From Okamejei kenojei (taxonomy: Eukaryota): a DNA stretch of 64,000 nt. The notes beneath the pieces were generated by a model. That model made no database searches, was not told the DNA's origin, and saw only the letters and a list, made by a program, of their open reading frames with translations. This document shows, piece by piece, positions 736 through 63,756 of the stretch; position 1 is the stretch's first letter, and each line of letters begins with the position of its first letter. The translations under genes were made by a program, and so were the position numbers. Where the stretch lies: assembly GCA_035221665.1 (NCBI GenBank), contig CM069154.1, positions 12,400,001-12,464,000 on the forward strand, in the 5' to 3' direction.

Positions 736-1090
736 CTGAATTTTTTCTTGAAGGTCTCTCATTAATCGCCCCCACCAAGTTTCCCAGCCTGTCTTGGAAA
801 AAAATGAATAGGTGACGTTTCGGGTTGAGACTGCTCACCTAATCCTTTTCTCTGGAGATGCTGGCTGGCCCGCTGAGGTAGTCCAGCATTTTGCGTCTAT
901 CCCTCAGTAGAAGTATTGGTTTCTAGTCGAGAAATAACTAAAGATCTTGAAGCCGAGACAATAAAGGGCTGCTGAATTGCGCATCAGAAGTAATTATTTT
1001 CCGATGCGAATAATTCTGACAGAGTATCCTCTTCGTGACTGACTGTCCGTAGGTACCCACAGTTTTTCAGAAGGCAGTCTCTGAAAGAAT

Positions 1091-1387
1091 GGGTGGCACA
1101 GTAGCACAGTGGTTGAGTTGCTGTCTTATAGCGCCAGAGATCCGGGTTTGATCCTGACTTTGGGTGCCGTCTGTACGGAGTTTGTACGTTCTCCCTGTGA
1201 CCACGTGGGTTTTCTCCGGGTGCTCGGGTTTCCTCCCACACTCCAAAGACATACTGCTTTGTAGGTTAATTCGCTTTGGTAAATTGTCCCCAGTGTGAAG
1301 GATAGTGTGGGTGTACAGGTGATCGATGGTCAGCATGGACACGGTGGAGCGATGTGCCTGTTTCCACGCTGTATCTCTAAACTAAAC
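1091..1387 (+). mobile_element. HE1-type V-SINE, full length
   Basis: A-box-like head, B-box-like GGTTTGATCC, V-domain GTTTGTACGTTCTCCC...TTTCCTCCCACA, tail GCCTGTTTCC...CTCTAAACTAAAC. Confidence 0.9.
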
Positions 1388-1646
1388 CCAGTCTCAATTC
1401 ATTACACAGGCTTGCACGACATTCTCTTTTAAGCTTGCTTTTACTTTTAATATACCCTGAAGAAGTCCCATTGCTTATGGGTAAACATCTGAGTTAAAGG
1501 CGCAGGCAAGTACAACAGATCTTTTATAAGTATTTTGTTGTTGCCACTGTTTGAGGGAGGATTGTTGGTCTGGACTCCTGTAGAATTCACTGAGCATTTG
1601 CCCTGAGTACAGTCATTGTTCTCTTCCCAATGAACCTATTTTATTC

Positions 1647-1851
1647 AAAAAATGCTGGAGTAACTCAGTGGGACAGGCAGCATCTCTGGATAGAAGGACT
1701 GGGAGACCTTTTGGGTCGAGACCCTTCTTCAGACTCGACCCGAAACATCTCCTGTTCCTTCTCTCCAGAGATGTTGCCTGACCTGCTGAGTTGCTCCAGA
1801 ATTTTGAGTCTATCTCCGGTGTAAACCAGCATCTGCAGTTCCTTCCTACAC
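1647..1851. mobile_element. Penelope-derived fold-back element (inverted arms)
   Basis: Arm TGCTGGAGTAACTCAG...GGCAGCATCTCTGGA...CTTCTTCAGAC followed by its reverse complement; the same arm ends the GIY-YIG-bearing copies. Confidence 0.75.
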
Positions 1852-2242
1852 TGTTTTATTCACAAATCATTTTCTCCAATGTATCTGGGTGGTTTCCTCC
1901 TGATCACTCTGCAAGGTGTATTCATCTGGTGTTTGTGTGATACCAACTGTTGGCTTCATAGCAACTAGTTAATCCGGGAGTATTGTGTTTATAGGCCTGT
2001 AATGCTGCTGCAAGAAAGAATGTAATTGTTCAGTTTTTGTGACGTATGACAATTCAACACGTTGACTCTTGATCAAACCGAAGGTAGTTCTGCCTTTGTG
2101 ATCATCAATTACAGTCTGACCCTGCGTCGGTAGAATTTATCCTAAACCCAACCTACAGAGCATGTAATATCTAACCCAGGCTGTCCTTGCAGTCGCAGTG
2201 TAGCCATTGTGTGCTTGGTGTCCAGTAGAGCTATGGGTTATA

Positions 2243-2452
2243 ATAGGAAGGAACTGCAGATGCAGGTTTACACCATAGATAGACAGAATAAGTGCTGAAG
2301 TAACTCAGCGGGTCAGGCAGCATCTCTGGAGGAAAAAGGGTAGGTGACGTTTCGGGTCGGGACCATTTCTCAGGCTTGACCTGAGATGTCGCCCACCCTT
2401 TATCTCCAGAGATGCTGCCTGACCCGCTGAGTTACTCCAGCATTTGTGTCTG
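2243..2452. mobile_element. Penelope-derived fold-back element with probable 11-bp TSD
   Basis: Inverted arms; flanks agctatgggtt (2229-2239) and agctataggtt (2457-2467). Confidence 0.75.
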
Positions 2453-3137
2453 TATTAGCTATAGGTTGTGTTCGCTTGGTACTTGGTCCTCGCTGAGCTA
2501 TGCAACATCAGAGAGAGGTTGCCGGAGCAGCAGCCAGTTTATATCTGTGTGCAAGGGTGTGAGTTAATATTGGGCAGCAATGTGTGGTGGGCTGATATGT
2601 GGTGCATGGCAGCCAAGTATTATGAGGAGGAGCAGCGTGGAGCAAAACTCCACAATCTCTTGCAGCAAAACAGGAAATGCAGTCAGTTCCTGAGAAGAGC
2701 AAAAACTGGGTTTAAAAAAAGTTTTCAGTTCCATCACCACAAATGTTTGGACAGTAGACGTTGAATGCGCCCCTCTCTCTGGAAGCAGCTGGAATAAATA
2801 TGAGTATCCTTTTATTCCACATTCCTAATGGAATGATGAGCAGCCAGCTCCAAACCCAGGTACAGGCATGTGGGTCAAAGGTAACGTGACCTTGTGAAGT
2901 CAATTCCTCCGTCCTGTTTACCATGAAGGATATGACTTTTGTTTAAAAAGACAAAAAACTGGAGTTTCTTTGTATTTCTCTTACTTTGGCAAATCAGTCG
3001 TGATAATTGCATTCTTGACACTCTGGCCAGATCCCAATTAAAATAAATGTCCTGATGCTGAGTGCAACAAAATAGAGTCTGAAGAAGGGTTCCGATCGAA
3101 ACGTCACCTATTCCTTCCCTCCAGAGATGCTGCCGTA

Positions 3138-3383
3138 AGGGCCTCTCCCGTTTGACGATTTTCTCGGCGACTGTCGGCATCATTGACTGACGTTTCAGGT
3201 CACCAAAAAAGTCCTGGCGGTGACGTGGCGTGACAGCGTATTGACGAGTGGTGTCTCCTCAAGTGTTACAACATTTTTTTTGTCGCTGCTGGATTTTGAA
3301 ATGTTCAAAATCTTTCAGTGACCTGATACGTCAGTCAATGACACCGGCAGTCGTCGAAAAAATCGCCATGTGAGACAGGCCCT
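3138..3383. mobile_element. Harbinger-type MITE nested in a Penelope-derived arm
   Basis: TIRs AGGGCCTCTCCC / GAGACAGGCCCT with long internal inverted arms; TAA on the right flank. Confidence 0.65.
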
Positions 3384-3626
3384 TAACCCGCTGAGTTACT
3401 CCGGCATTTTGTGACTATCTTTGGTATTAACCAGCACATGCAGTTACTTCCTGCGCAAAATGCAAACTGATGTTGATCTGCTTTTGTAGTAGGTGTGCAT
3501 TTGGGAAACAAATGTGACACTGACTCGTGCGAGACCTTGTGGCCTGGTTGGAAGAATTTGTGATCTACCCTATCTGGGTAATAACTGTCTAAATTGAGAA
3601 GACCAGGAAATAAATCTACGTTACAG

Positions 3627-4165
3627 ATGATACGATACAATAGAAATTTATTTATCCCAGGAGGGAAATTGGTCTGCCAATAGTCATGAAACACAACAAG
3701 ATACATGAAATTAAAGTGANNNNNNNNNNNNNNNNNNNNNNNNNNNNNNNNNNNNNNNNNNNNNNNNNNNNNNNNNNNNNNNNNNNNNNNNNNNNNNNNN
3801 NNNNNNNNNNNNNNNNNNNNNNNNNNNNNNNNNNNNNNNNNNNNNNNNNNNNNNNNNNNNNNNNNNCCCCCCTCCCCCCCTCTCCTGTGGGGAAGCAGCT
3901 ATTCCTGAACCTGGATGTTGCACATTTCAGGGGAGTGGAAAGTCCAGGATTGGGGATCTGCAAAGATGGGGGCAGGGGAGTCAGTCTACCCCACGACGGG
4001 AGGGGTTGTACAGTTTGATAGCCACAGGGACAAAGGATCTCCTGTGGCGTTCTGTGCTGCATCTTGGAGGAACCAGTCTGCTGCCGAAGGTGCTCCTCGG
4101 GTTGACCAGTGTGTCATGGAGGGGGTGAGCTGTATTGTCCAGGGTGCTCCGCAAGACTTGCACCT
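3627..4165 (-). mobile_element. Rex1/Babar-like LINE 3' fragment
   Basis: Minus-strand peptide HPLHDTL...LVPPRCSTERHRRSFVPVAIKLYN, then 3' UTR and short tandem tail; spans the gap. Confidence 0.65.
3720..3866. other. Assembly gap (run of N)
   Basis: Continuous N bases inside a LINE 3' fragment, next to a C-run. Confidence 0.99.
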
Positions 4166-4434
4166 TTGAAAGCAGCTGCTTTTTTTAACGAATAAAATAT
4201 TTTTTCTGTGGTCGATTCACAGGGGTATGCCAAAAACGATGAAGATATTCCATGATTGATGTTTTGAAAAGTTATGAAACGATTGATTTATTTAAAACAT
4301 TGAAGGAGTTTTCACATCTGGGGGAGTTCAAGCTAAAGGTTGCAGATAAAAGACCTCATAAATAAAACCAATGCATCAGTTCAAGATTTTTTGAATAAAA
4401 CAAGTTTTGTGCAGAGTGGTTACAGTATCCTGTT

Positions 4435-4683: not shown

Positions 4684-5065
4684 TGAAGCTTTGAACTGAG
4701 GGATAACCGTAGCAAATGGCGCAGTGCATTTTGGGGGAACCTGGAAGAATGTAGCACCTTATATTTTGCTTCAAGTATAAATATTAATTTCTCTATCATC
4801 AAGTAACCCTTGCATCCTCTCTCTCACTGTCCCTCCCCCACCCTAGTATTCCTTCTAGTGTCCTTGTCATGCTATGATCTTCCCCACAGCCACCAATGGA
4901 CCATTGTGGGCTCCACTTTTCCTTGATCATCGTTGCCAGCTTTGATCTGTCTTTCTTTCATTCATTTGTTTCCTGTACCTTTCCCACGCCTCTCGGTTCC
5001 CTCTCCCCTGACTCGCAGCCTGAAGAATGATCTCGACCCGAAATGTCACCTATTCCTTTTCTCCA

Positions 5066-13161: not shown

Positions 13162-13823
13162 AGGGCCTGTCCCACTTGCGTTTCCTTGGCACGCAAATTA
13201 CACGACCTCGTGGTCACGTAGAGCCGCGACAGTCCCGTGAAGGTCGCGCGCGACTTCATTCGACCGCACAGCCGTCTGGAGCGCGTGACGTCATTTGAAG
13301 ATGGGCACAAAATGTCGGAGTAACTCAGCGGGATTGGCAGCATCTATGGAGATAAGCAATGGGTGATGTTTCGGGTCGAGACTCTTCGTCAGTCTGAAAG
13401 AAGGGTCTTGACCCGAAATGTCACCCATTCCTTCTCTCCAGAGATGCTGCCGGTCCCGCTGAATTACTCCAGCATTTTGTGATCTATCTTCAATTTTCTT
13501 GGCCCCGCTCTGGGAGTAGAAGTGGGGGCGGATCCGGACAGCAACGGCCGTGAGCCCCAGTCCGAGTTCAGCGATCGTTTGCCTGCTTCTGCTGCTGTTG
13601 GAGGTGAGGCGTTGCGTCACGCCAAGGTCTTGGGCCTGTCCCACTTTGGCCGTCATTCGCTACAAAAATTTCGGAGCCCTGCGCGATGTCGCGCACAACT
13701 TCATACCCCTCCGCGCTTCTCAGTGGGACTGACCCCGCACGGCCATACGACGCCCATATGCCTCAAAGCAACCACTAGGTCGCGTAATTTGCATGCCATG
13801 GTCATGTAAGTGGGACAGGCCCT
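13162..13823. mobile_element. PIF/Harbinger-type MITE, TAA TSD, with nested Penelope fold-back element (~13300-13490)
   Basis: TAA|AGGGCCTGTCCCACTT ... AAGTGGGACAGGCCCT|TAA. Confidence 0.85.
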
Positions 13824-13997: not shown

Positions 13998-14302
13998 ATG
14001 GCTATCTGGACTACACTTCTTCCCACCCTGCTTCCTGTAAGGACTCCATCCCCTACTCCCAATTCCTTCGTCTACGCCGCATCTGCACCTAGGATGCGGT
14101 GTTCCACACCAGGTCATCAGAGATGTCCTCATTCTTCAGGGATCGGGGATTCCCCTCCTCTACCATAGATGAAGATCTCACCAGGGTCTCTTCGACCCAA
14201 AATGTTGCCTATTTCATTCGCTCCATAGATGCTGCTCACCCGCTGAGTTTCTCCAGCATTTTTGTCTACCTTTGATTTTCCAGCATCTGCAGGTCCTTGT
14301 TA
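13998..14302 (+). mobile_element. Internally deleted Penelope element with 13-bp TSD
   Basis: Encodes YLDYTSSHPASCKDSIPYSQFLRLRRIC (post-RT linker) joined to the terminal arm; flanks aacagataattcc / aactgataattcc. Confidence 0.8.
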
Positions 14303-14349
14303 AACTGATAATTCCTCACTTGTTTGCCAGTAAGATCCACTCCCTACAC

Positions 14350-16199: not shown

Positions 16200-16606
16200 T
16201 GCTCCTCATCGCATTAGCCAACCTGATCGCCCGGTGGCTCAGGACTTCAACTCCCCCTCCCATTCCGAATCCGACCTTTCTGTCCTGGGCCTCCTCCATG
16301 GCCAGAGTGAGTGCCACTGCAAATTGGAGGAGCAGCGCCTCGTATTTCGCTTGGACAGTTTACACCTCAGTGGTATGAACATTGACTTCTCCAATTTCAG
16401 GTGTTGCTTGCTTTCTCCCTCCTTCCCCTCCCCTTCCCGGCTCTCCCACAGCCTACTGTCTCCGCCTCTTCCTTTCTTCTTCCCGCCCCCCCCCCCCCCC
16501 CCCCCCCACCCCCACATCAGTCTGAAGAAGGGTGTCGACCCGATACGTCACCTATTGCTTTGTTCCATAAACTCACCCGCTGAGTTTCTCCAGCATTTTT
16601 GTGTAC
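16200..16606 (+). mobile_element. Penelope 3' fragment (GIY-YIG C-terminus plus terminal arm)
   Basis: PVAQDFNSPSHSESDLSVLGLL...KLEEQRLVFRLDSLHLSGMNIDF. Confidence 0.85.
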
Positions 16607-17037
16607 CCAGGAGTTAGTTACTTGAAATGAGAGAAATCAATGTTTATACTGCTGGGTTGTCACCTACTCGAGCAAAATATGGATAGCCTATATGTTCCTC
16701 CAATTTGTGTGTGGCCTCGCTCTGGCAATGGGGGAGGCCCAGGACAGGAAGGTCAGTGTGGAAATGGGATGAGGAGGTAAAGTGGTTTGCAACCGGAAGA
16801 ACTGTTCGAACTACAGTTCAGTTTTTTTATTTTATGGGAACTGTGGTTGGTAAACAGAGTAAAACTCCAGTGGGAATCTGTTGCAGATGAATGTGTATGG
16901 AATAATGTGAATGTGCAAGTCAGCAGTCCTGCTTTCTATCAGTGCTCCGTGTGGTTTGTATTGAGAGTTTGCTTCCATTCTCTCTCTGGTGAAAGTTGCA
17001 TTTGTGTCGGATGATCCTGGCAAAGTAAATGTGAAGT

Positions 17038-17764: not shown

Positions 17765-18645
17765 GATGCAAAGTGCTGATGTAACTCAGCGGATCAGGCA
17801 GCATCTTTGGAGAATATGAATAGGTCTGAAGAAGCGTCTCGACCCGAAACATCACCTACTACTTTTCTCCAGAGATACTACATATCCTGCTGAGTTACTC
17901 CAGCGTTTTGTGGCTATTTTCGGCTTAGAGCAGCATTTGCAGTTCCTTCCCACATGATGCTTTGGGTCGAGACCCTCCTTCAGTCCGATTGGGGAGGGGG
18001 GGGGGGGGAAGAGAGAAGAAAGCTGGAAGAGAGGAAAGCCAGAAGAAAGCTTGGCAGGTAATAGGCCGTCACAGGTGAGGGATTTTTTTTTAATGGTAGA
18101 CAGATGGTTGGAACGAAAGGCCAGATATAAAGGCAGGAACGTGAGGCAGATAGATTGAAGATTTGCAAATTGTGAAGCCAGAGGAAGGAGTGTAGGAGGA
18201 GAGGACAGAAATAGGTGTCAGTCCAGCTTGGGGGAGGGAATAAAAATGTGGGAGGGGGGAGGTGCAGGAGAGGGGGCGGAGGTTATCTAAAATTCAATGT
18301 TCGTACTGCTGGGTTGCAAGCGGAATGTGTGGCCTCACTCTGGCAATGGAGGAGGCCCCGGACAGAAAGGCCAGTATAAGTGTTAAAGAAGGAACTGCAG
18401 ATGCTGGAGAATCGAGGGTACACAAAAGGCTGGAGAAACTCAGCGGGTGCAGCAGCATCTAAGGAGCGAAGGAGATAGGGGATGTTTTGGGTCGAGACCC
18501 TTCTTCAGGCCAGTATAAGAATGGGAAGGGGAATTAAAAGGTTGGCAACCTTGAAAGGCCGAGTGTAAGTGTTTGGTCGCTGAGCCTACTCATCGATTGG
18601 TCTTGCCAATGTAAATCAGCATCTGCAGTTCCTTGATTCTACCTT
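17765..18645. mobile_element. Cluster of Penelope-derived arms and a minus-strand 3' fragment
   Basis: Fold-back element 17765-17952, then further arms and GIY-YIG remnants. Confidence 0.7.
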
Positions 18646-19924
18646 TTGGTGAAATTTGGGTTGTTTCTCTGGAGGCTGAGGGGAAATATATCTGATCACG
18701 AGAGGCGTGGATAAGGTAGATGGTCAGAACCGGTTTCCCAGCATGGAAATGTCATGGACTAGCGGCTTTAAGATGAGAGGGGCAAAGTACAAAGGTGTAC
18801 GGGCGGGCACACAGAGTGCACGGAATGCATTGTCAGGGGTGGTGGCAGAGGCAGATATGATAATGACAGTTCAGAGGCTTTGAGTAAGCATATGAACGTG
18901 AAGGGAAATGGATTATCTGCAGACAGAGGAGATTAGTTTAACACGGCAGTATGTTCAGCACAGACAATGTGGAACAAACATCCTGTCCCTGCGCTGTACT
19001 GTTCGATCTGTAAGAAAGAACTGCAGATGCTGGTTTAAATCCAAGGTTGACACAAAATGCTGGAGTAACTCGAGATTTCGCCCATTCCTTCTCTCCAGAG
19101 ATGCTGCCTCACCCGCTGAGTTACTCCAGCATTTTGTGTCTACCTGTCCTGTTCTATGCTCAATAACTACAATCATAATAACTGTGAAATCATGTTGCAA
19201 TTAATTCACTCTAAGAATAATATAAATTTCTCGGAATACAAACTGTGCAATATTAGTCTGCGCACATGTATGTATTATGGTAATGGAATAGAATATGCAC
19301 AGTTATTCTGCAGTACAGATTGTGTTGGAATGCATCTCTCGTGTAAACTGCAGTGTATTTTGAGCAACTGTCTATGAGATTGGATGGTGATGCCAATAAT
19401 AGAAGCCGATTGAGGTTGTACAGTGATCCACGTTGTGCTATATAATTGGACATTGTACTGTGCACCAACAATGTGTGTGGTGTGGAATTTGCACAGCCTG
19501 TATGGTTATTGAATAATAGTCCATGTTTGATGAAGTTGCCCTGGTATAATAGTAACTGTGTGTGTGGTTTAACATTTTAATGACTGCCAAGAAAGACTCT
19601 TTTGTCAGTACACCCAGGACAAGTATTTTTGAAAACCAAAATAATACTACAAAATGCAGGATGACACACAGCCTCTTGGTTACGTATGACTGCAATTGTC
19701 TTCACATGGATCTGTAATCTCTCGTTTTAGTCATCTTCTTGTGTATGGCGTGCACCGCCTAAAGATGTAGACACCAAAACACTACATCTATTTGTTTGTG
19801 CACATCGAGTTGGTTCTTTAGTCGAAATAGGGTGGACCACGTGAAGGTTGCAATCTCCCACCCCTCTCATGCTAGTAATGTGTGTTATTCACTAGTCAAT
19901 ATCACTGCTTCAACTTAGAAGTTT

Positions 19925-23091: not shown

Positions 23092-24224
23092 GATCAGGAT
23101 TCAGTGGAAGGGCTCAATTTGTGAGTCCCTGCACTTTAGTCAACATGTAAATAAACCGACTGAAGGTGAATTGGCTTGAAAAGTAGTGGGAGTCTTTAAT
23201 GCATTCCTCCGAGAGGTTCTTGAACAAGTGAACGTCTGTAGAACTTGTTTTCCTTGACCTGGTAAAGACGCTTGCGGTAAAGTGTGGAATCGCATGGAAT
23301 TTTACTGTACGGGATATTCAACTGGTGTTTGTGCCTCTTCCCATCTTGCGAGCTACCTCCCTGACAACATCTCGCCATCCCTGATAACAACACTGCACAC
23401 GTTCCATGTAGGTCCGTTAAAATGCATTTGAATCTCAGTTCTGAGCTTGATGCCCATCTCCAAACTTTGCAAACAGCAGCTTGCAAAATCAGCACTGCTG
23501 AGGTAGCACCAATACATATAGAAACTAAGAACCGCAGATGCTGGTTTATACCAGAGACAAAGTGTCAGTCATACAGTGTGGAAACAGGCCCTTCGGTCCA
23601 ACTTGCCCACACCGACCAACATGTCCCATCTACACTAGTCCCACCTGCCTGCCTTTGGCCCATATCCCTCTAAACCTGTTCCAGCCATGTACCTGTCTAA
23701 TTGTTTCCTGAGCATTGTGATGGTCCCTACCTCCTCTGGCAGCTCGTTCCATACACCTGCCACCCTTTGTGTGAAAATGTTATCCCTCCGTTTCCTTTCC
23801 CCCTTCACCTTAAAGCTACGTCCTCTGATTCTGTATTCCCGCCACTCTGGGCAAGCGCAGCAGTAACTCAACGGGTCAGGCAGCAGGATGCCTGAGGTTT
23901 GGAACAAAGATTGGGTGACGTTTCATTTTCTCCAGTGATGCTTCTTGACCAGCTGAGTTACTCCAGCACTGTGTGTCATCTATCTTTAGTACCAATAAGT
24001 ATTGCCCTACCCTTCTCAGCGGGCAGGGTCAATCTGCCTGAGCCACGCAAAGTGGAGGCTTGCAGGAAGACGGGCAATGCCTGAAGGTTATTCCGCCGAC
24101 TTGCGGATATGCTGTTCAAATGGACGAGGACGGATATACATTCTGTGCAGGTAGATGAGATTAGATTATCCTGGCATCACGTTTGGCACAGACATTATGG
24201 GCTGATGGGCCTAGTCCAGTGACT

Positions 24225-27005: not shown

Positions 27006-27305
27006 AGGCGACACAGTGACTCAGCGGTAGGGTTGCTGCCTTACAGCGCCAGAGACCCAGGTTTGATCCTGACCTCGGATGCTGTCCGTGTGGAGTTTGC
27101 ATGTTCTCTCTGTGACCACGTGGGTTTCCTCTGGGTGGACTGGTTTCCTCCCACATCCCAGTCTCATGCTGAGTTGTAGGTAGGTTAATTGGCCTCCTTA
27201 CAAGTGCCCCAAATGTGTTGTGGGGTAACTAGCGAGAACAGGTTGGCATGGACTCGATGGGCCAAAGGCCCAGTTTCCGTGCTGCATCTCTAAACTAAAC
27301 TAAAC
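27006..27305 (+). mobile_element. HE1-type V-SINE
   Basis: Head, V-domain, (CTAAA)3 tail. Confidence 0.85.
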
Positions 27306-28432: not shown

Positions 28433-29074
28433 AAATGTCAAAGCCTGCAGATGCTAGAATCTGGGGCAAGGTAGTATTTGCCCATTCATACTAGTAGAGT
28501 CGTACAGTATGGAAACTCGCCCTTTGGCCCAACTTGTCCATGTTGTTGTTAGAGTTCGATGTTGTCCAGCTTTTTTGCATTTACTCCCTGCAGACCAGGG
28601 GCAATTTTGAGAGGTCAATTAACCTATAAACCTGCATGTCTTTAGCAGGTGGGAGGACACCAGAGGAAGCCCACACAGTCAAAGGGGAAAATGTGCAAGC
28701 TCCACAGAGACAGCGCCGGAGGTCAGGATCGAACCGGGTATCTTGGGCTCTGAGGCAGCAGCTGCGCCATCCGTTGCCTTGTGCAACGAGGCAGGAGAGA
28801 GTTGACAAATGGTCACCTCCCCCTCCTGACCCAATGCAAGTGCAGCCAGATCTCTCAAGAGGATGCACTACACTTAATAATTCAGCATTCTTCCTCCACC
28901 TCCCCCTCTCACCCCACAACATAGGGACTGTGTCTGCCCCTCACCCCGACAGCACACACCGTCTGATTCCCTCTCCGCCAAATCAGTGGCTCTTTGCCAT
29001 TCCAAAGATCTAAACCTGAATGCCTACTCCTGGAATCCTGTCACTGACTAATTGAGGCAAATATGGATTTACCT

Positions 29075-29298
29075 AAAGATAGACACAAAGTGCTGGAATA
29101 CCTCAGCAGGTCAGGTGAGAAAACGATGGGTAATAGCTGCCTGCCTCGCTGAGATACTCCAGCACTTTGTGTCTATCTTCGGTATTAGTTAGTTAGTTTA
29201 GTTTATTGTCACGGGTACAGTGAAAAGCTTTTGTTCCGTGCTAACCAGTGAAGGGAAGACGATACATGATTACCAGCACCTGCAGTTCCTTTCTACAC
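29075..29298. mobile_element. Penelope-derived fold-back element interrupted by a LINE tail
   Basis: Inverted arms AAGATAGACACAAAGTGCTGGA / TCCAGCACTTTGTGTCTATCTT. Confidence 0.7.
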
Positions 29299-29784
29299 GT
29301 ATATTTTTTTCCTGAAATATAGGATATTTTGTTATGATGCTGCAGTGAGAGGGGTTTCTGTTTGTTTAAAAAAAACAGGACCGAAAACTGAGTTGACTTT
29401 AAAAATGTTTCAATATTAATCGCACATGTTGTTTTTCTTTAATGGCGCCTACTAATGGCATTCCTTAAAAACTTCTCAATCTTATCTCATGAGTTGTCTC
29501 TGAGGTTTTTTTTTTAATGAGTGGTTGATAATGTTCTGGTAAAACTATTTTCCTTTCTGCGTTACACATGAGCAGGACGTTATCCATCCGAACTGCCAGC
29601 TCCGATGTGGTTGATCGTCAAGTGAACAATTATTAATCCTTGGCTCCATGTTCCCATTTCCCTGCCAAGTAGTACTCCCTTTTGACACTTGGCTGCCAAG
29701 TTTCCCCCCTCTTGCTGTTACGCCTCCCAGTCATATGAGTGACTAATCAGCTTTTAATACAGTCATATGTTTTTGTCTTGACAG

Positions 29785-30855
29785 CGTCAGGAACATAGTG
29801 AAAAGAATCGAAGATTCCCTGAGCCAAACCTCTTGTATTTCAACGTGCAACGTTCTCCGGAAATACAGCTGTCCTCCGACCAGGAATTTGGACCAGGTTA
29901 ACCCCAACACTGGAGGCCGGAAGGTCGAACCTTCGGGAAAGTCTGTGATCTCTGTGGACCTTGGTTCGGGCAGAACCAGGCCAAATGAGACTCCATCCCC
30001 CAGACACAGAGCATCGGGGTGGGGGGGAGGTGCTCGAGATGGACGGGTTGTGAAGAGTTTACTGGAGAAGATGCACTCATCGGGCAGTGCCCCCAATCTC
30101 GGAGATCACTTCATCCCCCGCCACCGTGCTGTCAACATTAAACAGAAGATTCTGCAATGGGAGGGGAAATCGAACGTTGTCTCCAGCACGGGCCAGCCCA
30201 CGGAGGGCACTCTATCCCCAGAGTGCGGCAGTCCACTTGCTTCTGAGGCAAAAACTGAGAGCCTGGCGGGTAGCAACAAGCGAGGCCTAGTGAAAACGAA
30301 AAGCCTGGGCCTGGATTTCAGGGAAGAATGGAATGCAAGTGACCAAAAGGTGAACAGTACTGTAGAGAAAAATGGGGGAGAAGCTAACTCGAGAGTGTTG
30401 TCTCCTGTCTTCCCTCAAGCAAAGAAAGTGGATAGTTTGGCCAAGAACACTGCAGAATCTGCAAAGCTGCTACCTCCAGGGAATTTTTACACATCCCAGA
30501 AATTTTGGAAGAAGATGCAAAGCATTCCACAGGATGAAAATGCAATATCTGCCTTGGAGCTGAAAAGGAAGCGGGAAAGCTCCAGCTCAACTGAAAAAGA
30601 CTTGGATTTGACGAATTTTAAGAACAGAGAGATTGCCAGTAGGAATACGGAGAACGTGTACAACACACATTCTGAGGAAACTGGAGAATCGCGTGCAATT
30701 AATCCCGTTCCTAAACCTCGACGGACCTTTAAATATGCTGTAGATAAAACTCCTGGTGCAAAAGAAAATGACCAGTCCACTCCCCCTCTGCCAACCCACC
30801 CCCCTCCTGCAGCCAAGACACCCGGGACACAAGCACAACTAATAAAGGCAAAAAG
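29785..30855 (+). CDS. DENND2C: DENND2C large N-terminal exon (1071 nt, phase 2-2)
   Basis: ttttgtcttgacag acceptor; AG|gtagg donor; open throughout; encodes NIKQKILQWEG, LPPGNFYTSQ, ENVYN, INPVPKPRRTFKY; internal ATG at 30071. Confidence 0.9.
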
Positions 30856-31074
30856 GTAGGCCAACCTCCATTCATTTTGGAACCGATTACTTTTGGAGGA
30901 TTGACAGTTTGGAGACCAAATTATCACACATCATTATGGCTGAAAGGTATCAGTGGATGCCAGGCTATGACACCGGGGTCTACATTGTAGCTTCCATCTG
31001 ATTTACAAGGGTTGACAATGTGAAAGCTGGCACTGAAATATCACAGTAACCAGTGCGGTTCATTTACTGCAGTA

Positions 31075-31273
31075 TGTAGAAAGGAACTGCAGATGCTGGT
31101 ATATACCGAAGATAGACACGAAGTGCTGGAGTAAATGTGCGGGTCAGGCAGCATCTCTGGAGAAAGCGGATGGGTGGGGTCTGAAGAAGAGTCCCGACCC
31201 GAAACGCCACCCATCCTTTTTCTTTAGAAATACTGCCTGACCCGTTGATTTACTCCAGCACTTTGTGTCTATC
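31075..31273. mobile_element. Penelope-derived fold-back element
   Basis: Inverted arms with CTGAAGA...GAAAC core near the apex. Confidence 0.75.
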
Positions 31274-32111
31274 ATTGTGATTTACCGCAATGTCCGATTG
31301 TAGGTAGTGTTTAATCCCGGTGTTTTGCATGTTTTCATGGCAAGTACCTGACTTTGCGTATCAAGATACTTCCGTCATCCTGTGACCACTCTGTCTCATT
31401 CTGTTGTGTTTATTGATAGGCCAAATTCAGAGCACTTCAACTGTCCAGTAGTCCATTCACAAGTTTTTGCTGATCTAACTTTTTATTTTCCTTGCTTCCC
31501 TGCCCTTTCGCCGTACTTCCTCCCCTGTCAACCAGAACGTAGACGGTTCCGCAGTAGATTGCTTACTACTATACTACTACATATCATTCTTCACCTTGCG
31601 TCCTTGTTTGAAAACTGAGTTTTAAAGTGTCAGCGCTTTCGGCAGCACAAGAAATAATAATGTAATCAGGAAGATCTTCAACCAGGATGATTCCTCTTCG
31701 CCTGTGCAAAATTGAACGATCACATGCAGGTTCCGTACAGGCAGCCATTATCGGGATCGAACCCGGGCCTCTGGCGCTGTGAGGCAGCAACTCTACTGTT
31801 GCGCCACTGTGCCACACTCGTTGCTCTTTCTGCCTTGTTTAGTACAGGTAACCACAGTGTTCTCATGGTCCAGCTGAAGAATGCTGTCCTTGTGTGGTTT
31901 CACACTTCCACCCTGAAATTGCTTCGTGTCCTGCTCCAAGAGTCTATTCTAGTTCACCTCCTATTTCAATCTATGTACACTTGACAACCTCAACCACATT
32001 TCCCGTGACTATATCCTCTCCTGCCTCACAACAGTCCAATTCATTGTCCCAGGTGGCTGTAGAGGCCGTCAATGGATATTTTTAAAGCAGAGTGTGCCCG
32101 AGTCTTGATTA

Positions 32112-32366
32112 GAAACTCGGGAGAGCTCTTGAATGAACTTGTACAGTGGGACAGGGCCATTATGACCCTGTCCCACTGTACAAGTTCATTCAAGAGCTCT
32201 CCCGAGCTTAAAAAAGAAATCAAACTTATGGTAAGCACGAAGAATGTACGTAGCGGGAACCTCGGAGCCCCGAGTACCGACGAGCGGTCATTACCATAAA
32301 TCCCCAAGTTCGAATCTGTGGAAACTCGGGAGAACTCTTGAATGAACACGTACAGTGGGACAGGGC
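32112..32366. mobile_element. Harbinger-like MITE with an extra inverted terminal copy, inside a CR1 tail
   Basis: TIR core CCCTGTCCCACTGTAC; TTA and TAA near the junctions. Confidence 0.65.
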
Positions 32367-33635: not shown

Positions 33636-34424
33636 CGGCATTAATATTACGTTCTAATTCCTATACTCAGTCTGCCGACTGATAGAGACAAGTGTGCCCC
33701 GGGGGCTCCTCCCGCAGCTGGCCTTGATGGTGCAGGAGATGAGACCCCACAGATCTTCTTCCCGGCCCTTTGTCCAGCGTCCGCCGCCAACTCTGGCCCC
33801 CCCCACCCCCCTCCTCTGGTTCCCGGTCCTTGGGGGCTGAACAGAAGACGGCCTTGGATGGGGCCCCCACTCAGGACGGGTTTCCGGTTCAGCGGTGGGA
33901 GAGGGGGACCTACTTCCTGCTGGGGTATGGCCGACCTCCGCGGTCCTCTGGGATCCTCTGCTGCCCACGTCCCTTTGGCAACTTGTCCCGCATATTTATC
34001 AACCGCCATGCATCTTAAAACTTCCAGCATCTTTTCCTTTGTTAATGACTATCTTCAAGACTGGGAGAGGTTTGGCCAGTGTGGGCAAGTTGGGCTGAAG
34101 GGCCTGTTTCCACATTGTATAACTCTATAACTATTAACTTTGTCGAGTTCCTGAGCATCCATGTTTTTCTCCATGGTAAATACATTCAAGAAAGATTCAT
34201 CTACCATCTCTGCCATATCTTGTGTCCCTATACATATACAACCTTTATTTTCTCTGTTATTATTATTTTGCCCTCGATTTACTAGTAGAATCCCTGTTGA
34301 ATCTCCTTTACTTTTTATCCATTTACCACCGTCAATTTTCCTATCCTTTTTATAATGCTGCCAAAACCCATCTTCCATCCTTCATGAACCCTAAATTGAT
34401 TCAAAATGGTCTTCCAGTATCGGA

Positions 34425-34975
34425 GATAGACACAAAAAGCTGGAGTAACTCAGCGGGACAGGCAGCATCTCTGGAGAGAAGGAATGGGTGATGTTTCTGG
34501 TCGAGACCCTTCTTCTGACTGGTTAGGGATAAGGGAAACGAGAGATATAGACAATGGAGAGATAAAGAACAATGAATAAAAGAGATGCAAAAAGTAACGA
34601 TGATACAGGAAACAGGCCATTGTTAGGTGTTTGTAGGGTGAAAATGAGAAGCTAGTGCGACTTGGGTGGGGGAGGGATAGAGAGAAAGTGAATGCCGGGG
34701 CTACCTGAAGTGAGAGAAATCAATATTCATATCACTGGACTGTCCAAGCGGAATATGAGATGCTGCTCCTCCAATTTGTGTTTAGCCTCACTGTGACAAT
34801 GGAGGAGACCGAGGACAGAAAGGTCTGTGTAGGAATGGGAAGGAGAATTCAAGTGTCCAGCAACCGGGAGATCAGATGGGTTCAGGCGGGCTGAGTGAAG
34901 GTGTTCTGCGAAACGATCGCCAAGTCTGCGTTTGGTCTCGCCGATGTATAAACGTCCACATCTTGAACAATGGAT
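34425..34975 (-). mobile_element. Penelope 3' fragment with GIY-YIG endonuclease remnant
   Basis: CSRCGRLYIGETKRRLGDRFAEHL...HLNSPSH...KLEEQHLIFRL. Confidence 0.9.
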
Positions 34976-39757: not shown

Positions 39758-41150
39758 GCCCAGCACATTACTCCATTTGTCACACTATTAAAACCACAAG
39801 CCACACGGCAATGGAAAGGAAGTGCAGTTACGAATGGAAGATGTTGGTTCACCACAGACTTAACTAGCAATCGCATTGTAACTGACCTCAGCATTTGTCT
39901 TCGAACTGTTATCAAGATGACCTTTACTGGACAATATATGTTGAAAAACCCGGTGATGATCACCTCCCTGTTGAAGTAATAGTGAAGTCCCATCGCTCCC
40001 TGATAAAGTGACATCTTTATACGTGTCTTCAAGCAATGGCAAACACACACATTTTTTCTTTATTCCACCGTCCCTCCTCAAGCCTCTCGTCATTTATACC
40101 TGTGCTCTTATTCTCTTGCTTCTCTGGCCTGCATCATCCACTTCCTCCTCCTCTTACTTCCCCATTACATGTTCTGTTCCACACCACTTTATCCTCTGTC
40201 TTCCACCATCTCCCTTTGCATCCCACTCCATCTTGTACTTCTCTCATTTGCTGTCCCCCGCCTGCTCCCCAAAATGTCTCGCACCTCCATGTCCCACACC
40301 TAATTGGCCATTAATCCATATTGACAAAAACACAAAGTGCTGGGGTCAGGCAGCATCTCAGGGGGACGTGGAATCGGTGACGTTTCAGGTCGGGACCCTT
40401 CTTCAGACTGATGGTGGTGGGGAGGAGGAAGCTGAGAAAGGGGTTGGGGTGGGATAAAACATAGCTAGTGATAGGTGGACACGCGTGAAGGATGTTTTGC
40501 TTGGGAGATGGGTGGACAGAGGCGAGAAATGAGAAGGAGGCAAAAGTGTGTTGTATAAAGAGAGATGGGTGAAATGTAAAGCCAGAGGGTGGGATACAGG
40601 TGGGGGTGGAAGGGGGGTGGGACGGGTAGTTGAGTGGGGAAGGTGCATTATAGTGGGAGAAATGGGTGTGTATCAGGTTTGAACATAGAGAGGAGATGGG
40701 GGGCTGTTACTTAAAATTGTAGAATTCAAAGTTGCTCCATCTTCTGCTTTGCTTTGCTCCAAGGCCTTTAATCATCACTCCCATCCCCAAATCTCGGTTT
40801 CTGCATTTTTTTTTCTCCTCACATTAAACCCATTCATTTTGTCTAGGCTTCTTGTGTATTCCAACAGGAATCTTGGTGTTAACTAGTGTTTGATACCAGT
40901 CTTGCGTAGGGCTTGCGGCTGTAATGCTGTGTTCTAGTTGTTTGATGTTATTGTCAGTGCGCACCACGGCTGCTCCTGGCTTCCCTCTCCTCCTCACCAC
41001 CCCTCTCCTTTTGTTTATCCCTCCTCACACTTTCCCTCTCCCCCCCCCTCCACTTCCTACTGTTCCTTCCTACTCCCCTACTTCTTCCTTTCTCCCTCTC
41101 CCCAACTCAAGTAGGTTTGACACCATGCGAGCCTGCCGCCATGTATTACA

Positions 41151-47804: not shown

Positions 47805-48303
47805 CGGGCGGCACAGTACCTCACAGCGCCAGAGACCCGGCTTCCATCCTGACCTCGGGTGCTGTCTGTGTGGAGCATGTACGTTCTCCCTGTGATCACA
47901 CGTGTTTCCTCCGGGTGCTCCGGTTTCCTCCCACATCCCAAAGACGTGAGGGTTTGTAGGTTAAGTACAGGAAGGAACTGCAGATGCTGGCTTTAAACCG
48001 AAGACACAAAAAGCTGGAGTAACGCTGGGTTAGGCAGCATCTCTGGAGAAAATTAATAGGTTGTGTCTGAAGAAGGGTCTCAACCCAAAACATCGCCTAT
48101 TCCTTTCTCCAGAGATGCTGTCTGACCCGCTGATGTTACTCCGGCCTTTTGTGTCTATATCTTGGGTTTGGCCTCTGAAATTACCCCTCAGTATGAAGGG
48201 AGTGGATGAGAATGTAGGATAACATGGACTGCTGTGAACTGGTGATAGATGGTCGGTTTGGAGGGCCGAAGGGCCTGTTTCCACGCTGTACCTCTAAACT
48301 AAA
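47805..48303 (+). mobile_element. HE1-related V-SINE interrupted by a Penelope fold-back element (~47966-48163)
   Basis: Insert follows GGTTTGTAGGTTAA; SINE resumes at TTGGCCTC. Confidence 0.8.
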
Positions 48304-48854
48304 TGAAATGCCTCTTCTCCTTTTATATGAAGCCCGTTTGTCTCCTTTTCACTTCTAACACTTGTTACTTACGCCACCCATCTATCAGTCAAATTGCCTT
48401 CAGCTGTATCCACCTATCACTTGCCAGGGGGAAAAAACCCAGCAAGTGCTGGAGTAACTCAGCGGTGCAGCAGCATCTCTGGAAGATGTTGAAAGGTGAC
48501 TTTTTGAGTCTGGGTTCTTCATCGCACTTGGGACCTGAAGGGTTCAGACTTGAAACGTCACCTACCTTTGCTTTTCAGAGGTGCTAGCTGATTCACTGAG
48601 TCCAAGCCGACCATCGATTACCCGTTCACGCTAATTCAATGTTATCCCACTTTTGCAGGTGCAGTTTCACAGTAATGCATTAGGTTAGACGTTGCCTGCG
48701 TAACTATGAAGTGTGTTGGCTTGTAGTAACAAGGAACTGCAGATGCAGGTTGCACAAAAGAACACAGTGCAGGAGTAACTCAGCAGGTCAGGCAGCATCT
48801 CTGGAGAGCATGGATAGGTGACGTTTTGGGTCGGGACCCTGTTTCAGATCTGAA

Positions 48855-57155: not shown

Positions 57156-57946
57156 TAAGACAGCAACTCGACCACTGTGCCACCATGCCCACTGTTAACC
57201 AAGAGCATAAGTGTGTATTGGTAGTTTAGATACTACTTTTGCATTGGGCTTGGTTTTCTTGTTTGAACGATTACCCTGGAGTTTTACACAAGTACTTTGT
57301 GTTTTACCAGTAATTCATTTGGTCAGTTACAGGGATAGGAAAGGTTTAGAGGGATCTGGGCCAAACACAGGCAGGTGGGACTAGTGTAGCTGGGACATGT
57401 TGGCCTGCAAGGGCTAGTTGAGCCGGTTTCCACACTGTGTCACTGTTCGACCCAACTAACCCATGCCGGCCGACGTAAATTATCCCTAGTGTGTGTAGGA
57501 TTGTGTTAATGTGCGGGGATCGCTAGTCGGCGTGGGCCGAAGGGCCTGTTTCTGCACTGTATCTCTTATCTAAGCTAAACTAAACATTGTGTGTAGGAAA
57601 GAACTGCAGATGCTGGTTTAAATCAAAGATAGACAAAAAATGCTGGAGTAACTCAGCGGGACAGGCAACATCTCTGGAGATGAGGAGTGGGTGACCTTTC
57701 GGGTCCAGACAAGTCTGAAGAAAGGTTTTGACCTGAAACGTCATCCATTTTCTCCGGGTGCTCCAGGTTTGCTCCCACACTCCAAAGACAGGCAGGTTTG
57801 TAGGTTTATAGCAGTCTGAAGAAGGGTCTTGACCAAAAAACGTTACCCATTCCTTCTTTCCAGAGATGCTGCCTGTCCCGCTGAGTTACTCCAGCATTTT
57901 GTGTCTAAACTACACATTCTCTGGTTGCTTGACGGGAGGCTTATTC

Positions 57947-59850: not shown

Positions 59851-60103
59851 GACGGAGTACACAGACAACCTTAATGTAATTTACATCAACCATTCCCAAA
59901 GTGAAGGGTGGTGTTCTGGAGGGGCAGCGGGATTACCTAGAGGGGTGCGAAGAGGCAAGGGGGTGGCACGGGAGTGTCAGAGATGGATGGGGCTTTGGGG
60001 AAGATTGATGTCAGAATGCCAAAGAATCATGAAGGTGTGATGTTACCTTTCAACTATTTTGAGTTGACAATTTCATCTTCTTCATTCCATGTGCTTTGTC
60101 TAG

Positions 60104-60181
60104 CCGAATGGGAAAGGTAAAAGACTGCCGGAGGTTTATTGCATCGTCAGTCGTCTAGGCTGCTTCAATCTCTTCTCAAAG
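60104..60181 (+). CDS. DENND2C: DENND2C exon PNGKGKRLPEVYCIVSRLGCFNLFSK, phase 0-0
   Basis: gctttgtctag acceptor; AAG|gtaaaa donor; RLPEVYCIVSRLGCF motif. The next expected exon (ILDEVE...) was not found in the window. Confidence 0.95.
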
Positions 60182-60199
60182 GTAAAAGCAAATCAAAAA

Positions 60200-60290
60200 G
60201 TGTCTGTCTGTGTGTCTGCGTGTGCGTATGTGTGTGCGACTCTGTGTCTGCGTGTGCGTCTCTGTGTCTGCGCGTGTCTGTCTGTCTCCG
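60200..60290. repeat. Imperfect (TG)n-rich microsatellite about 20 bp after an exon donor
   Basis: Directly visible. Confidence 0.9.
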
Positions 60291-60736
60291 CATGTCTGAC
60301 GCTGTAAGGCAGCAACTCTACCGCTGCGCCACCATGTTGCCATGTTCTCCAGAGATGCTGCATAATCCGCTGAGTTACTACAGCACTCTGTGTCCTTTTG
60401 TGTAAACCAGTATCTGCAGTTCCTTGTTTCAAGGTGGATGTAGATGGGTTGGTGCTGTTTTGGTTGCATTTAGGTAGACACATGGATATGCATGGAGGGA
60501 TACGGCTCACATGCAGGCAAATGGGATTAGCTTGGCAGCATATTTGGCAGACGTTGTGGGCTGAAGGGCCTGTTCCTTTGCTGTAATACTCTGTGCTGTA
60601 ACTGGCTTTGTTTCCATCGTCTGCCCCCCTGCTTTAGGTTAAAATATTATTCATTTGCTGCCGTCAATATGTTGCCCACCCACATATTCCTGACACTGGG
60701 ATGTACGGAGAACTGACCTGGTCCAGTGGGAAGGAT

Positions 60737-60770
<34 letters not shown>

Positions 60771-61133
60771 GGGGAGGGAGAAGGTGTGTATGTGCAGAAA
60801 GCAAGGCCGAGCCTTTAAATAGCTTCTCCTCCACTTCCTGACAACCCCTCTCGCTTGAGAGAAAATCTCAGCGGTTCTCTCAGGTTCCTGGATGTGCAGG
60901 TTTTGTGTACAATCCGTCAGATAAAAGCCCGCAACTAGTTCCTGGCTAAACAAACCTCGGAAGTGCTTAAATAGGAAATGCAGGAAGCAGCAGTAAGACT
61001 GATTGTTGCTTCAGATTGTTACCTGCTGTTACTGCTCTGGCCTCTGGTGTATTTCAAGGGGATCCCATGTATTTCCTGTTGCAGCATCGCTTGTATTATT
61101 GGAGAAAGGCCAGGTTGACAATCAGCACAGTCA

Positions 61134-61453
61134 TTTAGTTTTTTAGTTTGGTTTAGTTCAGGGATACAGCGTGGAAACAGGCCCAAAGGCCCACCGAGTC
61201 CGCACCGACCAGTGATCCCCGCGCATTAACACTACCCCACACACACTGGGGACAATTTTACACTTATACCAAGCCAATTAACCTACAAACCTGTACGTCT
61301 TTGGAGTTTTGGAGGAGACCGAAGATCTCGGAGAAAACCCACACAGGTCACGGGGAGATCGTACAAACTCCGTACAGACAGCACCCGTAGTCGGGATCGA
61401 ACCCGGGTCTCCGGCGCTGCAAGGCAGCAACTCTACCGCTGCGCCACCGTGCC
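61134..61453 (-). mobile_element. HE1-type V-SINE, well preserved
   Basis: Near-consensus full-length reverse complement. Confidence 0.9.
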
Positions 61454-61752
61454 GTTTAAGTAATCAAACAAATCATTTTGCTCTTTCACTCAGAAACAGC
61501 TGCAAGTGTTGTTGCATCGTAAAATCTGATCCCCCTCACATCCGCCGGCTGCAATAAAATATCACCCAGTGTGTAGAATAACAATGAAAATGATCGCGGT
61601 TCTCAGCAGCGATGCTGGTTAGAGTGTGGTTGTACTAAAATGATGAGAGATGGCCATTTTAAGTTGGAATTTGGCTCCAATTTTCTCGATTGCCACACAG
61701 GCTGAGATCTGCCAACTTGGCCCAGATAGTGGATTAATCTCATGGCAAATTA

Positions 61753-62062
61753 GGCGCAGCACGGTGATGCAGCGGTAGAGTTGCTGCCTTACAGCACCAG
61801 AGTCCTGGGTTCGATCCTGACCACGGGTGCTGTCCGTGCGGAGTTTGTATGTTCTTCCTGTGACCGAGTGGGTTTTCTCCAGGTGCTCCAGTTTCCTCCC
61901 ACACTCCAAAGACATATAGGTTTGTAGCTTAATTGGCTTCGGTAAAAATTGTAAATTGTCCCTAGTGTGTGTAGGGTAGTGTTAATGTGCGGAGATCGCT
62001 GGTCGACGAGGACTCGGTGGGCCAAAGGGCCTTTTTCCGCGCTGTATCTCTAAACTAAACTA
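61753..62062 (+). mobile_element. HE1-type V-SINE, well preserved
   Basis: Head, V-domain, (CTAAA)n tail. Confidence 0.9.
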
Positions 62063-62246
62063 GTGTGAACATGTGATTGATGGTCGCTGTGGACTTGGTG
62101 GGCCGAAGGGCCTGTTTTTGTGCCATATCTTTCAACTATTCACTCTTCTGCCCCTCTATCAAAACTATCTTTTCATAATGTTATGCCAGCACCGTCCGTA
62201 CTCTGAAAGGGTTCCTGCAATGCTGAGCTGTCGGCATTGGTAGCAA

Positions 62247-63293
62247 AGGTAGACAAAAATGCTGGAGAAACTCAGCGGGTGAGGCAGCATCTATGGAGCG
62301 AAGGAAATAGGCAGCGTTTCGGGTCGAAACCCTTCTTCAGACTGAAGTGAGGGGGGGGGGGGGGTGCGGGATGAAGAAAAGAAGAGGTGGAACCAGTGGG
62401 CTGAGGGAGAGCTGAGCAGGGGAGAAGAAAGTAGGGACTACCTGAAATTAGAGATCAATGTTCACACTGCTGGGGTGTAAACTGCCCAAGCAAAATATGA
62501 GGTGCTCCTCCAATTTACGGTCCTCACTCTGGCCATGGAGGAGGCCCAGGACAGAAAGATCAGATTCGGAATGGGAGGGGGAGTTGAAGTGCTGAGCCAC
62601 CGGGAGATCAAGTTGGTTATTGCGAACTGAGCGGAGGTTTTGGGCGAAGCGATCGCCAAGCCTACACTTGGTCTCACCGATGTAGAGCAGCTGACATCTA
62701 GAGCAGCGGATGCAACAGATATGGTCGGAGGAGGTGCAGGTGAACCTCTGCCGCACCTGGAAAGACTGCTTGGGTCCTTGAATGGTGTCAAGGGGGGAGG
62801 TAAAGCGACAAGTGTAGCATTTCCTGTGGTTGCAAGGGAAGGTGCCCGGAGATGGGTTGGTTCAGGTGGGAAGGGACGAATTGACCAGGGAGTTATGGAG
62901 GGAGCGCTCTCTGCGGAAAGCCGACAGGGGAGGAGATGGGAAGATGTGGCAAGTGGTGGGGTCACGTTGGAGGTAGCAAAAATGTCGGAGGATTATTTGT
63001 TGTACGTGACGGCTGGTAGGGTGGAAGGCGAGGACAAGGGGGACTCTGTCCTTGTTGCGAGTGGGGGGGGATGGGAAGTGAGAGCAGAGTCACGGGGTAT
63101 AGAAGAGACCCTGGTGAGAGCCTCATCTATAGTAGAAGAGTGGAACCCCCGTTCCCAGAAGAATGAGGATATCTCTGATGCCCTGGTGTGGAACACCTCA
63201 TCCTGGGTGCAGATGCGGCGTAGACGAAGGAATTGGGAGTACGGGATTGGAGTCCTTACAGGAAGCAGGGTGGGAAGACGTGTAGTCCAGGTA
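62247..63293 (-). mobile_element. Penelope-like element, 5'-truncated (~1.05 kb; post-RT linker, GIY-YIG, terminal arm), frameshifted
   Basis: LDYTSSHPASCKDS...FHTRASEISSFF; FTCTSSDHICCIRCSRCQLLYIGETKCRLGDRF...HFNSPSH; flanks gcattggtagcaa / gcatttgtagcaa. Confidence 0.92.
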
Positions 63294-63756
63294 GCATTTG
63301 TAGCAAGCTTCCTTTCTTAGTATTTATCTCACCCAGCATATTACGTGAAGCTGTGGGGAATGCATGTGGGAGATCGCTGCCTTTTTTTTCTCGGCTCTCA
63401 ACATAATCTCCCCATTCTACACACCACCCTCCTCCCCGCTACGATTTGCCTTCTTGTAATTGTTTCCAGTCCGCTTTTGTCAGTCTGACAAAACTGAGCT
63501 CACTAAAACCAGATGGATACAAAATGCTGGAGTAACTCAGCGGGTCAGGCAGCATCTCGGGAGAAATGGAATGGGTGATGTTTCAGCTCGGAACCCTACT
63601 TCAGACTGAAAGATGGAGAAGGCCAGGACAGAACAGGGCCAGCAACAGATGACCTCTGGAAGGGTGGAGTCCATAATGGCGCATTGTTGGCTGGGGAAGA
63701 TTAATAAAGACAGGGATACAAGGAGGTAAACAGTGGAAGTAGTAAGAACTAGTAGT

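Follow-up and report, generated by a model that had tools for sequence, protein, structure and literature searches.

Penelope-like elements (PLEs) that carry an endonuclease leave insertions in which an inverted pseudo-long terminal repeat (pLTR) and a tail on one side only, 30–40 bp long, are enclosed in a target duplication, as described in PMC3846280 and PMC8557442. How PLEs make the inverted end is treated as an open question in PMC8557442 and PMC11167929. In vitro, a PLE protein nicks and extends both DNA strands, two internal starts of reverse transcription bound the tail, and the hammerhead ribozyme is dispensable for insertion, according to PMC11167929. Here we analyze a repeat, hereafter the arm, in a stretch of 64,000 nucleotides from Okamejei kenojei (assembly GCA_035221665.1, contig CM069154.1, positions 12,400,001 to 12,464,000, forward strand; hereafter, the window). 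This arm forms the 3' pLTR of a PLE encoding a reverse transcriptase (RT) and a GIY-YIG endonuclease (EN), and it recurs in inverted pairs, or fold-backs. With a probability of roughly 80%, we read each such hairpin as two 5'-truncated pLTR ends standing head to head, a dead-end product that is made anew at each insertion and does not propagate itself.

The fold-backs resemble published EN-bearing PLE insertions (Adineta Pen2a_Av, PMC3846280; general scheme, PMC8557442) in their head-to-head pLTRs, the tail at one end and the strong 5' truncation, and likewise in a target duplication of ~9–17 nt around the unit and small overlaps or palindromes at the junction. They differ from Pen2a_Av in that the direct copy usually retains no more than the pLTR, which gives units of 90–250 bp at an estimated 200,000 places. 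The Poseidon element PAc of the green anole (PMC11167929) is similar in having two RT start sites that bound the tail, a tail that consists of body sequence following the pLTR, and a pLTR hammerhead that seems dispensable for insertion; the parent element described here is set apart from PAc by a Neptune-like Cys-rich linker between RT and endonuclease and by a longer body. Animal non-LTR retrozymes (PMC7229834 and bioRxiv 10.64898/2026.07.22.740005) are, like the fold-backs, non-coding, related to pLTRs and equipped with a type I hammerhead, but they are tandem repeats whose units follow one another head to tail, each with its own hammerhead, whereas in fold-backs the two arms are inverted and most cores are broken. 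The minimal hammerheads of PLEs, their tails and their inverted pLTRs have all been published and the existence of such a family is ordinary; this one may itself already stand in the supplementary motif alignments of PMC4209133 or in the preprint's tables.

The arm is the 3' end of a Penelope-like element

A profile was built from the window copies of the arm and used to search both the window and a genome sample of 120 stretches of 10 kb, taken at evenly spaced round coordinates on large contigs (1.2 Mb in total). It finds 61 arms in the window, where the initial annotation had counted more than 30 loci, and 541 in the sample against none in reversed sequence, so that ~4% of the sampled DNA is arm sequence (52,739 of 1.2 million bases). 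Neighboring arms no more than 40 nt apart number 118 in the sample, comprising 92 head-to-head, 8 tail-to-tail and 18 tandem arrangements, and random placement yields only 5.5 head-to-head neighbors (maximum 13). Extrapolated to the 2.76-Gb genome, the arms would number about 1.2 million and the fold-backs ~210,000. The string of the hammerhead core within the arm has 48,215 exact matches genome-wide and none in the reversed control. Short tandem arrays of the 3' half of the arm, in units of ~54–66 nt and without the core, occur at L013:8072-8406, L013:9311-9660 and L021:6760-7065; they suggest repeated re-priming or slippage.

The arm lies 3' of the RT in 42 of the 44 RT-bearing genome loci (two of the 44 cover one place). 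Within the window it stands behind GIY-YIG-coding DNA at three sites, and the earlier claim that the coding Penelope copies end in this same arm is thereby borne out:

62246–63295, − strand: coding PLE copy, 5'-truncated, with RT thumb, Cys linker and GIY-YIG; ends in a tailless arm (62246–62386)
16210–16607, + strand: 3' fragment of a coding PLE, with the end of GIY-YIG and an arm (16477–16607)
34421–34975, − strand: 3' fragment of a coding PLE, with GIY-YIG and an arm (34421–34552)

A single frame of 755 aa (locus L245) contains both RVT_1 (E = 2.5e-6) and GIY-YIG (E = 0.002), each just short of its Pfam cut-off; the short frames of the window matched no Pfam family, and the RT plus GIY-YIG combination was found only in this long frame. 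A search of sequencing runs for the coding copy listed no RNA run containing it. The parent-element frames display YIDD and LxYIGET motifs and, within the linker that separates RT from EN, a Cys motif of the form C-x4-C-x2-C. A zinc-finger-like Cys motif in this position is a trait of Neptune and Nematis according to PMC8557442, and the parent element probably belongs to the Neptune clade. In a near-full-length copy (L244) the arm continues through a 35–40-nt tail straight into the body; the body of the element begins with the tail. The arms fall into six rough subfamilies with 5–22% divergence, each of which has copies behind coding sequence.

Two further observations concern PLE copies. At window positions 14001–14305 a fragment of the RT thumb is fused directly to an arm that begins in stem II, the result of an internal deletion or a template jump. 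On small contigs, NACHT-type frames that look NLR-like by eye lie beside PLE copies (L020:1771-3534 and L022:248-2091).

Fold-backs probably form anew at each insertion

The initial annotation had reported inverted pairs of ~200 bp, and the window contains 12 head-to-head pairs, among them all six that it cited. The pairs are listed by window coordinates; positions within the arm follow a hammerhead numbering in which position 1 is C3 and predicted cleavage falls between positions 28 and 29.

1646–1851: fold-back; a tailless − arm that begins 2 nt ahead of the core meets a tail-bearing + arm that begins in the loop of stem II; target duplication of 13 nt (1639 and 1854, with 1 mismatch); broken core
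2244–2463: fold-back with the junction type of 1646–1851 and the tail on the opposite arm; target duplication of 11 nt (2229 and 2457, with 1 mismatch); broken core
13297–13491: symmetric fold-back turning at a CAG-T-CTG palindrome; neither arm has a tail and neither core is intact; cargo of a DNA transposon
17769–17954: fold-back; − arm from the predicted cleavage position; core in the loop and broken (ACGU palindrome lost, stem II mismatch)
31075–31286: fold-back; − arm from the cleavage region, tailed; 10-nt target duplication (1 mismatch); core broken
47969–48165: fold-back; − arm from the cleavage position, tailed; core broken (G12 lost)
785–901: short fold-back remnant without core
19009–19145: coreless fold-back; target duplication of 11 nt with 1 mismatch
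23853–23991: old fold-back without core
29064–29183: old fold-back without core
48432–48601: old fold-back, strongly diverged
57590–57754: fold-back, the sole window pair to pass the intact-core test; core predicted to be buried in the arm–arm helix

The 92 sampled pairs share one layout. A tail is present on exactly one arm in 73 of them (44.8 expected) and on both arms in 2. Target duplications of at least 8 nt (8–17 nt) surround the unit in 23 of the 53 complete pairs, compared with 0–2 in six controls, and the view that these ORF-less fold-backs have target duplications of their own stands.

Turning points differ from pair to pair: the 73 one-tailed pairs have 68 different junctions, a count that rests on mapping arm starts with added linkers, which gave false starts near −12 at palindromic junctions (arm starts were also mapped without the linker). 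The two arms of a pair are kin. Both belong to one subfamily in 73 of 92 pairs, against a mean of 20.3 and a maximum of 35 in 10,000 permutations, and in the random sample 75 non-consensus variants are common to both arms of a copy, against 41 (maximum 61).

One junction, that of 1646–1851, has 281 exact matches in the genome. The first 30 of these belong to five subfamilies, with the tail on the right in 24, on the left in 5 and absent in 1; arm identity is 0.869 within a copy and 0.820–0.823 between copies on the same side; and the flanks are unrelated, a flank on one side being common to 1 of 435 pairs. Because the matches span five subfamilies, bear the tail on either side, lie between unrelated flanks and are more alike within a copy than between copies, this junction forms anew repeatedly. 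None of 40 places scored for the junction of 47969–48165 is a close sibling of it, the best match elsewhere being 85%. Where copies have both a junction and private marks in common, they have the flanks in common as well. Across 104 fold-backs, both flanks are common to only 4 of 5,356 pairs; these involve five loci, including window 13297–13491. Shared apex junctions with distinct flanks or target duplications and with side-specific mutations, the pattern expected of propagation as a unit, were not found in these comparisons. The initial annotation had held that a unique apex in every copy would mark an insertion by-product; most junctions do differ, and the 281-match junction, which departs from that pattern, recurs across subfamilies.

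Two priming events or self-priming

Several features of the arms bear on how the inverted end arises. Among 205 arms with near-consensus cores, 110 have no pyrimidine linker, and their homology ends between positions −2 and −5; most arms fall short of the upstream linker, many of them stop 2–4 nt before the core, and only 2 of 184 fold-back arms retain at least 15 nt of upstream linker. The 5' reach of the two arms is unequal in a directed way: the tailless arm is the longer one in 39 of 73 pairs and the tailed arm in 11, with 23 ties (non-nested 39 vs 11, p=9e-5). When the first 100 of 2,952 junction-pattern matches were counted by hand, 43 lay at the site where the second arm has 4 bp of complementarity to the start and 7 at the 3-bp site of the cleavage position; junction frequency follows complementarity to the RNA start. 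At least 3 unassigned bases occur at 49 of 92 junctions. Long forms also exist: in L246 the 5' break of a coding copy is fused to an inverted arm ending 2 nt ahead of the core, and in L247 an inverted piece is joined with a coding body.

The fixed 5' start 2–4 nt before the core, together with the non-nested arms, favors two priming events over self-priming. The PLE protein would nick both DNA strands, and each nick would prime reverse transcription on uncleaved element RNA, one at the tail end and the other at the pLTR end. The resulting complementary DNAs (cDNAs) would stop early or run off the 5' end of the RNA, the fixed 5' start of the arm would correspond to that RNA end, and the cDNA ends would be joined through 2–4 nt of complementarity. 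We take TCAGT at the arm start to be initiator-like, and two-ended priming would resemble the twin priming of L1. The specific proposal, that a dimeric RT-endonuclease primes both strands at two fixed RNA sites, copies the uncleaved 5' pLTR to its start and joins the cDNA ends, with the hairpins as a record of the last step of PLE insertion, is tentative and falls a little short of an even chance. If true, it would replace the published self-priming account by two-ended priming and would explain why most copies are pLTR-only stubs. In the literature searched, which had subscription papers outside its scope, no paper was found to connect ‘twin priming’ to pLTRs; the term pLTR is absent from the two listed papers that speak of twin priming. 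The estimated 200,000 junctions are a modest lead on the insertion mechanism and offer testable predictions: a fixed start, non-nested arms, one tail, and frequencies ranked by microhomology.

The hairpins could also be by-products whose inverted arm was made by self-priming, when the cDNA or antisense template folds at a palindrome and copies itself and the apex is later deleted. This is the explanation proposed for inverted pLTRs in PMC3846280, where palindromic junctions serve as the argument, and our junction statistics depart from it. Symmetric junctions at natural palindromes do occur here, four at CAG-T-CTG (two of which are cargo copies of one insertion) and three at stem II among the 92, and the variants that the arms of one copy have in common also fit. 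Self-copying, however, requires nested arms, so it fits at most 11 + 23 of the 73 pairs and not those in which the tailless arm reaches further 5'; side-blind deletion would yield neither 39:11 nor the 24:5 division of tail sides at one junction, and the unassigned bases at more than half of the junctions are likewise at odds with it. We regard self-priming as an unlikely source of these fold-backs.

State of the hammerhead core

The majority sequence of the arm fits the minimal type I hammerhead, with CUGANGA, GAAA and UH, an unpaired base before stem II, G10.1-C11.1 and palindromic 15.2-16.2. This core is the majority state in all six subfamilies, one of which has GUU for GUC, and the earlier recognition of a hammerhead core at the inner arm end is confirmed. 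The minimal hammerheads of metazoan PLE pLTRs in PMC4209133 have the same CUGANGA, one base left unpaired ahead of stem II, a closing G-C pair, GAAA and palindromic ACGU in place of helix III; they too occur as scattered single motifs and as dual motifs on opposite strands 100–700 bp apart. The A after CUGAAGA, which the initial annotation had counted as a flaw, is a described feature of these motifs. Its other caveat was correct: helix I has 2 bp here, whereas PMC4209133 gives 4–5 bp and, for D. virilis, 2 bp; stem II here has 4–5 bp, against 7–8 in Schistosoma.

Most copies of the core are damaged. It is intact in 39 of the 255 sampled arms that span it, in 7 of 92 fold-backs (two intact cores in 1 of 92) and in none of the six window pairs originally cited. 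The motif was expected on both strands, which holds for a minority, 19 of the 92 sampled fold-backs; among the window pairs only 1 of 12 has the core region in both arms. An undamaged example is a single arm:

40311–40428, − strand: single arm with intact minimal hammerhead core and stem II; core at 40380–40406

The CpG core bases G12, C15.2 and G16.2 are mutated in 22–27% of copies, in line with 23% at other CpG sites, and fold-back cores decay at CpG rates. Compensatory change in stem II, which had been put forward as a check on the motif, is absent from the 255 arms and their subfamilies, where only one-sided or CpG-type changes are seen; the power of this comparison is low because no other hammerhead family was found in the 1.2 Mb, a descriptor search having returned 31 matches within the arm, none elsewhere and none in the control. 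An Rfam scan of the window listed no hammerhead family among 13 weak matches, all below gathering score, as is expected of a motif without helix III.

Folding predictions point the same way for fold-backs and parents alike. Each strand of a fold-back has one sense core, and its predicted stem II probability is 0.00 where the other arm covers the core (n=41), 0.04 in a further group (n=15) and 0.19 where the core lies in the loop (n=18). Coding copies score 0.01–0.03 (n=15), so folding alone does not separate fold-backs from their parents. None of these RNAs is predicted to take the hammerhead shape unaided, which accords with the protein-assisted cleavage reported in PMC11167929. The hammerhead of the fold-backs is probably just inherited, and any role it has would belong to the parent element.

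The amplified fold-backs traced here are cargo

The initial annotation had inferred a mobile, retrozyme-like family. Under that reading the fold-backs would be non-autonomous units, transcribed and reinserted as such by PLE proteins, with RNA processed by the hammerhead. Their own target duplications, their extrapolated number, the existence of shared junctions (281, 1,317 and 2,156 exact matches), the slightly better preservation of non-CpG core bases and the publication of non-autonomous PLE derivatives (PMC8557442 and bioRxiv 10.64898/2026.07.22.740005) would all suit such a family. The 281-match junction, however, spans subfamilies and both tail sides, and the other shared junctions have both flanks in common. 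Every amplified fold-back that we traced is cargo of a larger element, and two of the hosts are Harbinger-type DNA transposons. The host in the window is:

13162–13823: non-autonomous Harbinger-type DNA transposon of 662 bp, with 63-nt inverted ends from AGGGCC and TAA on both sides; carries fold-back 13297–13491

Siblings of this transposon are present at L073, L132 and L205. It has both the TAA/TTA target duplication and the GG(G/C)CC inverted ends listed for the Harbinger superfamily in Table 1 of PMC4423477, and resembles the non-autonomous Harbinger-type transposons there in its TAA duplication and GGGCC ends; it differs from plain elements of this type in having a PLE fold-back as internal cargo. 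An additional internal copy of its end motif lies at 13632. A young element of ~2 kb with similar ends contains several fold-backs and accounts for the 2,156 exact junction matches; both of the amplified fold-backs read in detail have broken cores. This composite (L255-L284, L153-L162), which lies outside the window, has short inverted ends and TAA/TTA-type sites and is made of PLE fold-backs, SINE-like (short interspersed element-like) pieces and a GT-rich array that repeats the 16-mer at the 3' end of the arm, with several internal rearrangements. A third host repeat (L285-L304, L066, L087) contains one arm-plus-tail insertion with 1,317 exact matches; the target duplication is identical in 22 of 22 copies seen, and the repeat starts ~220 bp before the junction and is more than 1 kb long. 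Three sets were accordingly rejected as fold-back families on account of their shared flanks: L070 and L103 with L153-L162, L255-L284, and L285-L304 with L066 and L087. L207 and L243, candidates for full-length elements with a 5' fold-back, proved to be separate insertions.

The condition of the cores is equally hard to reconcile with a retrozyme-like life cycle: few fold-backs retain one intact core, the single sense core on each strand has a predicted stem II probability of at most 0.19, and among the 18 tandem neighbors, 2 of which span both cores, none has two intact ones. A self-propagating family of this kind is therefore not supported, and we consider it very improbable. Least probable of all is that the turning point, or the ends of the RNA that is inserted, are fixed by hammerhead cleavage: one arm starts at the cleavage position in 3 of 12 window pairs and 7 of the first 100 junctions lie there, but the complementarity of helix I itself accounts for a junction at that site, most arms include sequence upstream of it, PMC11167929 reports no reads ending at the site in the anole element, and the 541 arms show no pile-up of 5' ends there (10 starts at positions 28–30, or 3.3 vs 3.8 per position), on which ground the cleavage site was rejected as the 5' boundary of the arm.

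Our preferred reading, in which pLTR ends are joined afresh at each insertion, has its own difficulties. An inverted piece at the 5' break is present in only 4 of 49 coding-body segments (3 insertions), and a continuum of fold-backs with long copies is not the rule. Asymmetric deletion of an originally perfect palindrome could be another source of non-nested arms, and gene conversion between arms another route to their likeness; within subfamilies of the random sample, moreover, the difference in identity is slight (0.840 vs 0.824). We place the RNA start from the DNA sequence, and the signal of a cap-derived G before the 5' start is weak (12 of 22, p=0.015; 34 of 100 by hand count) and is not used as an argument. 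The 3 window pairs that turn at the cleavage position also sit uneasily with our reading. The absence of excess core conservation, named at the outset as a mark against a functional ribozyme, is seen at the CpG bases and not entirely elsewhere: non-CpG core bases are mutated in 6.5% of cases, against 8.4% at other invariant arm positions (Fisher p=2e-4, per-position p=0.04), with base composition and copy age uncontrolled, and within fold-backs the figures are 7.9% and 8.9%. Many small fold-back families, each of fewer than ~100 copies, would be compatible with a 1.2-Mb sample.

Host context and other features

DENN-domain exons lie 9–11 kb to the right of the window on the + strand (C24:12472686-12474727), and the window itself contains a long open frame:

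29747–30859, + strand: long open frame of 370 aa, likely a host exon; no Pfam family and no Atlas match of at least 0.9

Frame and exons probably belong to one DENN-domain gene, which we guess to be DENND2-like. Given the exons and the frame, most arms are probably intronic. The suggestion that the fold-backs seed cleavable or structured RNA into introns therefore holds in part: the intronic setting is probable, and cleavable RNA is unlikely for nearly all copies because their cores are broken or buried in the hairpin, with one sense core per strand. Long hairpins would plausibly act as structured RNA in pre-mRNA. For annotation, the arm swells the count of hammerheads in the genome by motifs that are mostly dead, and a fold-back inside a DNA transposon can be mistaken for a mobile family.

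Positions 3720–3866 of the window are a run of 147 N. A near-perfect hairpin of ~99 nt at 32112–32210 is unrelated to the arm and has a weak Rfam match to a microRNA precursor, below gathering score. A second dispersed repeat, very abundant, ~290 bp long and SINE-like, occurs on both strands at 1096–1385, 27011–27298, 61759–62058 and other places in the window.

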